From IMG/VR virus record IMGVR_UViG_3300045988_114765, positions 1-64,000 of that record: a DNA stretch of 64,000 nucleotides. One strand, given 5' to 3'. Both the position numbers and the translations under genes were made by a program. The stretch is from a virus. The notes beneath the pieces are model-generated. The model had not been told where the DNA came from. It did no database searches and saw only the letters and a program-made list of their open reading frames with translations. Positions within the stretch are counted from its first letter, which is position 1. The number at the start of each line of letters is the position of its first letter. Below are positions 11,811-14,042 of this stretch, piece by piece.

Positions 11811-12872
11811 ATGAACAATTCAATAGTCGCTCACTTGTGGGCTCATGAACAAGAAGAATCAGCATCAGGGAGCAATTTCTTCTTTGAAGGTACAAGTATT
11901 TATTCTTATGGGCATCACCTTGAAGTCGGGAGAATAGTAAAAAACAAACAAGGGAAGAAAGCATACCTGATAAATGAAGATTATTATTCTGTTACCACGA
12001 GCAAACATCAATGCTATGTTCGTAATGCGATACCAACTTGGGCAATGGTTTTCAGTGTAGGGGATAATATGTCGGATACTGGTAATATGAGGTTTGTTAC
12101 CAGCAAACTGGAATCAATTAAGAAGTCTATTGAAAAATACAAAAGAGCTAAAACAGAATTATCTTATACAGATATTTGGGGCGCTTTTGGGAATATGATG
12201 GATTACATTCAGTTCTTTAACATGGGGACTGCTAAGAGTATCCTTAAAAAGAGTGCTAATGATTGGCTTGGAACCAATCATGAATTATCCAAGAGCGGAG
12301 ATAGTATCAAGCGTAAGCACGTACATGAATTAAAACGCATCTTTCAAATTTTATTGGATCATCAAGGATTAAAAGTGTTAGGGACCGTAAATGTGATTGT
12401 TGATGAAGTTTGCGGGGAAGGTACATGGATTAAGTATTCAGAAAGATCTGAAAGATGGAGAAAGAGTGAGGAAGAAAGAGAAAGAATAAAATTAGAGAGA
12501 TTAAGAAAGGAAGAAGAAGCCCGTTACAAGGATTTTGATGAAAAACTGGAAGAGTGGAAGTCAGGAGAAATCAATTTCTTGAATACACCTTTATATATTC
12601 CTGATGAAAAACCTAACGCCTGGATTCGTATAAAAGGAGATATTATTGAGACAAGTAAACAGATAAAGATTGGAATAGCAGAAGCCAGAAAACTGTGGCG
12701 GGCTGTGTCGGCAATGCACCGGGGCGCCGAGTTTCGGCACGGTCTGGTGGAGGACATCACCGGTCACCAGTGGAGTCTAAATCGGTACGAAAACGATTTG
12801 CTAACCGCTGGATGTCATAGGATAGCATATAACGAAATGGAGAGAATAGCAAAACAACTGGGATGGGTTTAA
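11811..12872 (+). CDS. hypothetical protein, 353 aa
   Basis: ORF only. Confidence 0.6.
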   Translation: MNNSIVAHLWAHEQEESASGSNFFFEGTSIYSYGHHLEVGRIVKNKQGKKAYLINEDYYSVTTSKHQCYVRNAIPTWAMVFSVGDNMSDTGNMRFVTSKLESIKKSIEKYKRAKTELSYTDIWGAFGNMMDYIQFFNMGTAKSILKKSANDWLGTNHELSKSGDSIKRKHVHELKRIFQILLDHQGLKVLGTVNVIVDEVCGEGTWIKYSERSERWRKSEEERERIKLERLRKEEEARYKDFDEKLEEWKSGEINFLNTPLYIPDEKPNAWIRIKGDIIETSKQIKIGIAEARKLWRAVSAMHRGAEFRHGLVEDITGHQWSLNRYENDLLTAGCHRIAYNEMERIAKQLGWV

Positions 12873-12929
12873 GTAACCCATCTTGTTTTATTGATTACAT
12901 AATTAAAAATAAAGGTAATTATATACCAT

Positions 12930-13007
12930 TTTACACCATCTATATAAAACAGAAGCCGGATATACGTTAATCATTATCTGGCTTCTGTTTTATATAGATG
13001 GTGTAAA
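12930..13007. repeat. perfect 28-bp inverted repeat (TTTACACCATCTATATAAAACAGAAGCC / GGCTTCTGTTTTATATAGATGGTGTAAA) with a 22-nt loop
   Basis: Verified base by base; sits in an intergenic position. Confidence 0.85.
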
Positions 13008-13235
13008 GTTGTATATAATCACCTTAAATTTAATGGCCCATTATATGAACGAACTAAACAAAGCATTCACTTATGTTTCGGCATCTCCCCTCTCCTCGAC
13101 GTGGTATTGGTCCAGTACTGAGAGCAGCCAGGCCGTCGCGTGGTACGTGGTCTTCTCCAGTGGCCTCACGGGCACCGGCAACAAGCACATCGGAGACATG
13201 GTTCGGGCGGTAATTGATTTTTAAAAAGGATTACA

Positions 13236-14042
13236 ATGATAACATCAGTAAAAATAAAAGACAATACAAAAACTCCTTTTGAATATGCTTCTGACATAGA
13301 AGCGTTTGAAAATAGTAGAGAATTTATTTTCAAGCCAGGAGTGAATGTGATTGTAGGTAAAAACGGTAGTGGAAAATCAACTTTGCTTAACATCATATCA
13401 ATGTATGCGTTATGCGAGAAATCCATGTGCTCTGAAATACCGATCGAGGCACTGGATTTTCCACCTATATTTGATGATGATGATAAGGTTTTTGATGGGA
13501 TTGATATATCATCCGATTATGCAGGGAAAGTATTCCGTTTATTGCCATCGGCGGAGATGAATCGAGATAGCGTATTGAAAAACATCAGCAACTTAGATTT
13601 GTATGTGAATAATATTAGAAGATCTTATGGAGAGAAAGTGGTGTTATCATTGGAATCACTTTTCAATTTAATGTTCGGTCAAAAGGATTATACGTTTCCA
13701 ATACAAGATCTTGTAGAATACAAGAAAAAATCAAATGCGTTTTGGATTAAAAGGATTGATAGTCTGTTGAAGTATTATAAAAGAAACCGCATAACATTAG
13801 CAGAAAGCAGTTTTGAATACACGGTTCTCATGGATGAGCCAGACAGGAATCTTGACATTGACAATATAATGCAAATTTATAATGTATTATCATTCCATAA
13901 ACCACAAACACAAATTATAGCCATAGTACACAATCCGGCATTGATTTACAAGTTAAGCAAATTAGATTGTGTGAATTTCATAGAGATGACAGAAGGATAT
14001 CTAAAGGATGTTGTCAATTTCATAAGTGAAACAAATAAATGA
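13236..14042 (+). CDS. ABC/SMC-type P-loop ATPase (AAA_15/AAA_21-like), 268 aa
   Basis: Walker A (GKNGSGKST); Walker B (VLMDEPDRNLD). Confidence 0.7.
   Translation: MITSVKIKDNTKTPFEYASDIEAFENSREFIFKPGVNVIVGKNGSGKSTLLNIISMYALCEKSMCSEIPIEALDFPPIFDDDDKVFDGIDISSDYAGKVFRLLPSAEMNRDSVLKNISNLDLYVNNIRRSYGEKVVLSLESLFNLMFGQKDYTFPIQDLVEYKKKSNAFWIKRIDSLLKYYKRNRITLAESSFEYTVLMDEPDRNLDIDNIMQIYNVLSFHKPQTQIIAIVHNPALIYKLSKLDCVNFIEMTEGYLKDVVNFISETNK

Follow-up and report, generated by a model that had tools for sequence, protein, structure and literature searches.

A hairpin in an epsilon crAss-like gut phage is very probably an IS1595-family relic that marks a deletion of about 4.8 kb

Introduction

Insertion sequences (ISs) of the IS1595 family are recognized by a set of common features, namely 8-bp target duplications, a DDE_Tnp_IS1595 domain in the transposase, an N-terminal zinc finger, and ends that start with GG (PMC8101967; PMC12561309). 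Some of these elements carry passenger genes in addition to the transposase (ISfinder family; Siguier, Gagnevin and Chandler 2009, as cited in PMC12561309 and PMC8101967). On a smaller scale, MITEs and mobile insertion cassettes are short, non-autonomous units, mobilised in trans, that are non-coding, bounded by the terminal inverted repeats (TIRs) of an IS, and able to form long hairpins. ISs also reshape the DNA next to them: adjacent deletions are classically described for IS1 and for the ends of IS10 and IS50, with loss of neighboring DNA, a breakpoint that falls exactly at the IS end, and a lost target duplication.

A literature search for IS1595 elements or MITEs in crAss-like phages found nothing. 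The crAssE-Sib phage (OR575929, where the GenBank record bears the name csAssE-Sib) has been described in PMC11054128, and this published genome analysis makes no mention of an IS1595-family element, of its miniatures, or of their reshaping of the early-gene region.

Here, we discuss a locus in a stretch of 64,000 nucleotides, referred to in its entirety as the window. The window belongs to an epsilon crAss-like gut phage, and its first 25 kb align to crAssE-Sib with 92.5% identity over 70% of their length. Between a gene for a 353-residue protein (11811-12872, the counterpart of crAssE-Sib WOZ57385) and an ATPase gene (13236-14042, AAA_21/SMC_N, the counterpart of WOZ57375) lies a long hairpin, for which the initial annotation had offered four readings: a cruciform or origin-like element, an RNase III processing site, a recombination site, or a strong attenuator. 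The reading that we favor, with a probability of roughly 90%, is that the hairpin is a 110-bp relic of an IS1595-family IS, composed of both TIRs and the IS's own terminator-like hairpin, and that it marks a deletion of about 4.8 kb.

The hairpin and its surroundings

The perfect inverted repeat of 28 bp that was first noticed here has its arms at 12930-12957 (TTTACACCATCTATATAAAACAGAAGCC) and 12980-13007, and it begins 58 nt past the stop codon of gene 11811-12872, just as had been described. The structure is in fact larger. Inward, the arms gain five further pairs (GGATA/TATCT, one of them a G-T pair) before they close on a 12-nt loop at 12963-12974. Outward, they continue into an imperfect palindrome with 57-nt arms (12906-12962 and 12975-13031) and a complementarity of 89%. 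The initial annotation had suggested computing the RNA fold, which turned out to be very stable with -70 kcal/mol, compared to -20.3 +/- 3.4 kcal/mol in 200 shuffles, none of which equaled it (z = -14.8). The DNA fold reaches -40.9 kcal/mol (z = -14.9). Values this far beyond those of the shuffled sequences rule out a chance origin of the palindrome.

Two other identities were considered and dropped. A known RNA family was set aside because an Rfam search of the hairpin returned only sub-threshold matches to generic structures, that is miRNA-like and sRNA hairpins. A repeated promoter or regulatory motif was likewise abandoned, since the 23-nt arm motif has no further occurrence in the 64-kb window.

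The features reported downstream of the hairpin, a GC-rich islet (GC 0.54-0.61), an ORF with a TTG start at 13009-13224, and the ATPase gene, are all present. The doubt that had been raised about the ORF was justified. Islet and ORF together are the C-terminal remnant of a 278-aa DUF3988/Lcl_C-like gene (13024-13224, plus strand), of which the last 66 codons and the stop are left, while the TTG start lies inside the right TIR. The 66 residues match the C-terminus of crAssE-Sib WOZ57377 (278 aa, annotated as DUF3988) with a single substitution, N14D, and the match starts straight after the right arm of the hairpin. Compared with Pfam Lcl_C, the remnant gives an E-value of 2.3e-5, which is below the gathering score.

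Among relatives, the Lcl_C-like C-terminus is a hypervariable segment. Within window positions 13080-13215, 63 of 136 columns vary and 31 alleles are found in 80 loci; several of these columns show all four bases, while the ATPase gene next to it retains 92-99% identity. Such variation is reminiscent of a region diversified by a retroelement. A diversity-generating retroelement was nevertheless dropped as a candidate: no template copy of the Lcl_C-like segment was found in the window or in crAssE-Sib, and the template repeat annotated in crAssE-Sib is unrelated to it. The islet has no second copy in the window, and a lenient blastn search of crAssE-Sib gave only a 21-nt match at chance level. 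A second GC-rich patch lies at window positions 12650-12800, in the 3' part of the 353-aa gene, with a GC content of 0.55-0.59, where the genome as a whole has about 0.36.

The parent element

In each of 18 IMG/VR loci with 16 different flanking sites, one copy of the inner arm sequence CACCATCTATATAAAACAGAAGCC is present and forms the end of a bigger element. The clearest copy of this parent (L122:179-3331) spans 3153 bp and is flanked on both sides by the 8-bp duplication ATTTTAGT. Its TIR is the 25-bp GGTRATTATATACNNNTTTACACC motif, which begins with GG and is present at both ends. The element encodes a transposase of 307 aa on the minus strand (L122:448-1371) that matches Pfam DDE_Tnp_IS1595 (PF12762) with E = 4e-42 and NCBIfam transpos_IS1595 (NF033547) with 192.7 bits, well beyond the cut-off of 75 bits. 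The zinc ribbon PF12760 (Zn_ribbon_IS1595) scores 20.2 bits, under its gathering score of 25.4 bits. Among the passenger genes is one for a TRL-like lipoprotein.

On sequence grounds, the parent has the published features of the IS1595 family except for the zinc ribbon, which scores below threshold, and it shares with the passenger-carrying members a transposase of the DDE_Tnp_IS1595 type, TIRs with GG as their first bases, 8-bp duplications that are rich in AT, and passenger genes. Furthermore, GGTGATTAT fits 'ggnnatTAT', the ISfinder end consensus of the ISNwi1 subgroup. Homologous IS1595-type transposases (43-86% identity) with the same flanking TIRs are found in Bacteroidota genomes, for example in Mucilaginibacter (L220), where the 8-bp duplication reads AACTATTT. 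The IS-specific end seen in the window, on the other hand, is absent from 185,579 species-representative GTDB genomes. The differences from an IS1595-family IS are that the window holds a stub of 110 bp, with no transposase detected by tblastn in the window itself, and that the parent element lives in phage genomes.

In the full-length IS copies compared, the right end (IRR) follows a fixed order of TIR (25 nt), TCT, a hairpin, and an interior that begins with GGTTAAAA. The hairpin has 21-nt stems (ATATAAAACAGAAGCCGGATA and TATCCGGCTTCTGTTTTATAT) and a 12-nt loop, and the 3' end of the transposase gene adjoins it; in the intact IS it is thus placed between the transposase stop codon and the IRR. 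It is identical across all full-length IS-end copies compared, with the exception of one wobble-compatible change in L005.

Anatomy of the relic

The relic, 12914-13023, can be taken apart into pieces of this parent. At its left end lies an IRL-like TIR variant of 25 nt (12914-12938, plus strand, GGTAATTATATACCATTTTACACCA). Of the 25 positions of this left TIR, 3 are different in the right TIR, 2 in the IRL of the autonomous IS that L122 carries, and two to three in every IRL or IRR seen on the parent IS. A TIR in a Rikenellaceae genome (L224) is identical to it over 25/25 positions. The right TIR, an IRR, occupies 12999-13023 and is preceded by AGA, so that the minus strand of 12996-13023 reads GGTGATTATATACAACTTTACACCA. 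It is identical at 25/25 positions both to the IRR of the autonomous IS and to the left end of the TnpB cassette of crAssE-Sib that is discussed below. Across the window, the 25-nt motif GGTRATTATATACNNNTTTACACCA is found in these two arms only (plus strand, 12914-12938; minus strand, 13023-12999). Both TIRs are predicted to be binding and cleavage sites of the transposase.

The center is taken up by the internal IS hairpin (12942-12995), whose 21-nt stems at 12942-12962 and 12975-12995 enclose the loop of 12 nt. A single derived change from C to T at 12979 has produced a G-T pair. When the minus strand is followed from 13023 to 12942, it corresponds to nucleotides 1-82 of the IS with one mismatch, which accounts for 82 of the 110 nucleotides of the relic. 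Beyond IS nucleotide 82, the window has AGA and a second TIR in place of the IS interior.

What remains is the trinucleotide TCT (12939-12941) between the left TIR and the IS hairpin, which makes the palindrome unbroken. TCT stands at the same offset in the natural IRR, but the IS interior that adjoins the hairpin is GAATTTTAACC. The trinucleotide fits neither a simple internal deletion nor any IS end in IMG/VR, where an end of the left-arm type, reading ATATACCATTTTACACCATCTATA (TIR variant and TCT), was not found. The perfect stem of 28 bp is accordingly made up of 16 bp of IS hairpin, 9 bp of TIR-TIR pairing, and 3 new base pairs (TCT/AGA). Such a long palindrome needs no special function to explain it, since one TIR pairs with the other and the IS hairpin fills the space between them.

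A deletion between two TIR tips

The comparison with related phages reveals that the relic stands in place of a much longer stretch. The sequences that flank the hairpin are 4.79 kb apart in the closest relatives and 118 bp apart in the window; across 80 IMG/VR relatives the distance ranges from 1.2 to 5.4 kb, with a median of 4.1 kb. By this comparison about 4.8 kb of phage DNA is missing, which in crAssE-Sib holds seven genes, a poly(A) polymerase-like gene among them, and most of the DUF3988 gene. The body of the latter is contiguous with its C-terminus in 75 of the 80 IMG/VR relatives.

When the window is compared with the closest relatives, each of the two breakpoints coincides, to the base, with the tip of a TIR. 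On the left (12913|12914), phage sequence ending in ...TAATTAAAAATAAA abuts the first G of the left TIR exactly; at this position the relatives L174, L146, L165, L208 and L197 read on as AAGATATGGAAAATCC, the start of the next gene. On the right (13023|13024), the TIR tip ...ATAATCACC abuts TTAAATTTAATGGCCC inside the DUF3988/Lcl_C gene, where the relatives read ...CTCTTGGTCAA|TTAAATTTAATGGCCC. There is no 8-bp target duplication around the relic, as its flanks are AAAATAAA and TTAAATTT. In this light, the recombination site among the four original readings came close, with the outer 25 nt of the arms being TIRs and the arms lying on the breakpoints of a deletion of about 4.8 kb, while nothing was found in favor of the other three options.

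A contig from the metagenomes provides a second view of the right-hand side. In L237 (OJKP01004416.1), an IS end with an intact transposase gene abuts TTAAATTTAATGGCCC, which is exactly the right junction of the window. The contig covers the right end of the IS and the transposase, and the left end lies off the contig. Judged from these junctions, an IS once sat exactly at the right-hand junction inside the DUF3988/Lcl_C gene. A transposase-bearing IS at the identical position indicates that the stub decayed in place from a full IS and did not arrive as a miniature element.

This has a direct bearing on the idea that the 110-bp unit is an active MITE that transposed into an intergenic position. 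The unit is short, non-coding, bounded by IS TIRs, and forms a long hairpin, as MITEs and mobile insertion cassettes do. Its two TIRs are intact, and other miniatures with these TIRs clearly transpose, given that 15 of 22 elements below 500 bp have perfect 8-bp duplications among the matches listed. However, the copy in the window lacks a target duplication, whereas such duplications do flank its sister elements, which share the TIRs and measure 51-452 bp among the matches listed. The palindromic form is moreover confined to a single locus; the initial annotation had proposed to search other phage genomes for the repeat, and this yielded no matches in IMG/VR and none in the JGI metagenomes. 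Together with flanks that are kilobases apart in relatives and the IS at the same right junction in L237, this largely refutes a MITE, which we regard as very unlikely. A single copy, no duplication, and a junction shared with a full IS characterize the stub as a deletion derivative that formed in situ, not as a member of a multiplying MITE family.

Other relatives (L212, L140, L153, L154, L199 and L200) likewise contain this IS1595-family element, or truncated pieces of it, at various places in the variable region that separates the 353-aa gene from the ATPase gene, and in all those copies the IRR faces the ATPase gene. In L212, an IS fragment of 335 bp (L212:6890-7225) adjoins a different breakpoint in the DUF3988 gene. 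The presence of the IS at several positions identifies the region as an IS hotspot.

An inherited scar of one sublineage

Two further assemblies, ERZ1314531 from ENA and ERR321162 from Logan, share the hairpin and both junctions with the window. In the ENA sequence, an A-to-G change at window position 13007 abolishes the last base pair of the perfect 28-bp stem. Since two public assemblies besides the window contain the sequence, an artefact of one assembly is excluded. One could still imagine that two inverted IS copies were wrongly joined via the palindromic hairpin of the IS, whose 21-nt stems read the same in both orientations and might let an assembler working with short k switch paths. 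Yet the junctions agree in three assemblies that were made separately and from different sources, one of which has a SNP of its own, and the left-arm sequence of TIR variant and TCT is absent as an IS end from IMG/VR. We therefore give an artefact hardly any weight.

For the initial annotation, absence from close relatives would have spoken against the hairpin as a meaningful element. At this locus it is indeed absent from all 80 IMG/VR relatives, and the two other assemblies do carry the stub. Neither junction of the window was found in IMG/VR, and the right one was found once in metagenomes, in L237. With no copy of the palindrome elsewhere and neither junction in IMG/VR, the stub is best described as an inherited scar of one sublineage.

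The distribution among relatives also weighs on the idea of a replication origin, or of a structural element of the phage that forms a cruciform. Either would be in keeping with the length and AT-richness of the palindrome and with its strong predicted hairpin as DNA. Against both stand the absence from the 80 close relatives, the lack of iterons or other repeat families nearby, and a cumulative GC skew that climbs steadily through the hairpin; furthermore, IS parts account for every part of the sequence. The origin-like element or cruciform proposed at the outset is thus unsupported, and we consider it extremely improbable.

Could the relic instead have been co-opted as an RNA or DNA signal between the 353-aa and ATPase genes, be it an attenuator, an RNase III site, or a terminator or insulator that acts in both directions? 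With its A-tract, stem and UUUUAUAU, the core is shaped like a bidirectional terminator, the predicted fold has a very high stability, and the lineage that carries it is represented in three assemblies. The stem CAGAAGCCGGATA/TATCTGGCTTCTG, followed by TTTTATAT, lies between an A-tract and a T-tract and is terminator-like on both strands; with its place downstream of the transposase stop codon, the 21-bp center looks like a bidirectional intrinsic terminator. It differs from such terminators in its 12-nt loop and the AT-rich base of its stem, and in being a hairpin that belongs to the IS, located after the transposase gene as a putative terminator. A scan with a terminator consensus did not call it, owing to the loop of 12 nt.

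The upstream gene, however, already has a terminator-like hairpin of its own (12859-12885, plus strand), an 11-pair stem followed by TTTTATTGAT that overlaps the stop codon and is kept in relatives. This hairpin is phage sequence outside the relic, and it means that no terminator is needed at the relic. In addition, the 80 relatives do without the element at this locus, the SNP in one of three carriers breaks a pair of the perfect stem, and the Rfam matches remain sub-threshold and generic. Co-option as a signal is therefore unlikely in our view. Of the regulatory roles suggested earlier, an RNase III site finds no support, and neither does a strong attenuator.

How the relic may have formed

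How could an IS with its own transposase be reduced to 110 bp on the edges of a deletion? In the proposed scenario, a transposase-dependent event would have linked one end of the IS with a site at a distance of 4.8 kb. This step may have been an intramolecular transposition, that is an adjacent deletion, or a recombination between two IS copies. Breakpoints at IS ends and a lost duplication are the product expected of such an IS-dependent rearrangement. The window shares with IS-mediated adjacent deletions the loss of neighboring DNA, the breakpoint exactly at the IS end, and the lost duplication. In contrast to the deletions described for IS1, IS10 and IS50, the IS1595 mechanism would apply here by analogy only, and recombination between two copies gives the same product.

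A later internal deletion would then have taken out the transposase and the passenger genes. Derivatives by internal deletion are frequent in this TIR family, with sizes of 51, 272, 431, and 452 bp among the matches listed. The order of the two steps would be told by the IRL in L237. If it abuts ...TAATTAAAAATAAA, the 4.8-kb deletion would have come first and the stub would have arisen by internal deletion; if it abuts ...GGTCAATTAAATTT, L237 would represent a simple insertion and the deletion would have followed later. The TCT trinucleotide may stem from a templated quasi-palindrome correction, or from an IRL variant outside the sampled set.

In its present form, the stub is most probably neutral. 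Incidental termination of transcription on either strand is conceivable, as is mobilisation of the stub in trans by the transposase.

Other elements with the same ends

The TIRs of the relic, which are those of an IS common in epsilon crAss-like gut phages, are part of a larger family. A scan of IMG/VR for the 25-nt TIR motif gave at least 120 loci. Among the matches listed, inverted TIR pairs form two size classes, one of about 1.32-1.35 kb and the other of about 325-338 bp, next to odd-sized pairs of 51, 272, 431, 452, 833 and 947 bp, and perfect 8-bp target duplications, rich in AT, flank 23 of 54 distinct insertions with a TIR pair. Inverted 25-nt ends in combination with 8-bp duplications identify the motif as the TIRs of a cut-or-copy DDE transposon.

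A 1349-bp element of crAssE-Sib has this motif at both of its inverted ends and contains a TnpB gene only (L002:14111-15459, record positions 64111-65459; NCBIfam guided_TnpB, 183 bits). TnpB-only cassettes of 1.32-1.35 kb with IS1595-type TIRs are also present at no fewer than 29 distinct sites (loci L006-L120), with perfect 8-bp target duplications at 8 of 29 among the matches listed. TnpB is here the cargo of a DDE-transposon shell and does not follow the IS200/IS605 or IS607 architecture. Ends of the IS200/IS605 type had been considered, the motif having first been met beside TnpB, and were dropped in view of true TIRs with 8-bp duplications and no subterminal hairpins. The crAssE-Sib paper terms the TnpB genes 'transposases', without mention of TIRs (PMC11054128).

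The smaller size class is a family of MITEs of about 325-338 bp, exemplified by L013:2499-2835 and L051:886-1215 and represented by some 15 more loci among the matches listed, with these TIRs and perfect 8-bp duplications. What they keep of the TnpB cassette is a terminal stretch of roughly 90-125 nt (76-79% identity), which is possibly the guide-RNA end. The elements of 272, 431, and 452 bp are plain internal deletions of the TnpB cassette, and the smallest derivative seen, with 51 bp (L114:5924-5974), consists of two TIRs nearly back to back.

One MITE of about 335 bp is located within the first codons of the ATPase gene in crAssE-Sib (L001:6226-6555, equivalent to window 13236-13250). Its far TIR is truncated, and the leftover TIR sequence ATGATATATAAAG provides the annotated new start codon. 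In the window, the start of the ATPase gene is uninterrupted (ATGATAACATCAG).

Implications for annotation and for crAss-like phages

The hairpin, the GC-rich islet, and the doubtful ORF are best seen as three pieces of one event, the insertion of an IS and a subsequent deletion that destroyed the DUF3988/Lcl_C gene. The value of the finding lies mainly in correct annotation, in which none of the three should appear as an origin, a regulator, or a gene. The relic is an ordinary kind of genomic scar, neither an origin nor a regulatory device.

It is improbable, though worth spelling out, that the stub has been kept as a very stable bidirectional hairpin that shields the ATPase operon from transcription coming from upstream, or as a live TIR substrate for an IS1595 transposase from co-infecting phages. 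If the latter were true, further deletions or exchanges of modules in the hypervariable early-gene region would be conceivable. The TnpB cargo on the same TIRs is the more interesting side lead and perhaps worth a study of its own.

On a broader level, epsilon crAss-like gut phages host an active IS1595-family element together with miniature derivatives, and this element reshapes the hypervariable early-gene region. The IS, its miniatures, and TnpB cassettes with common ends are spreading through the genomes of these phages, and this wider picture may merit follow-up.
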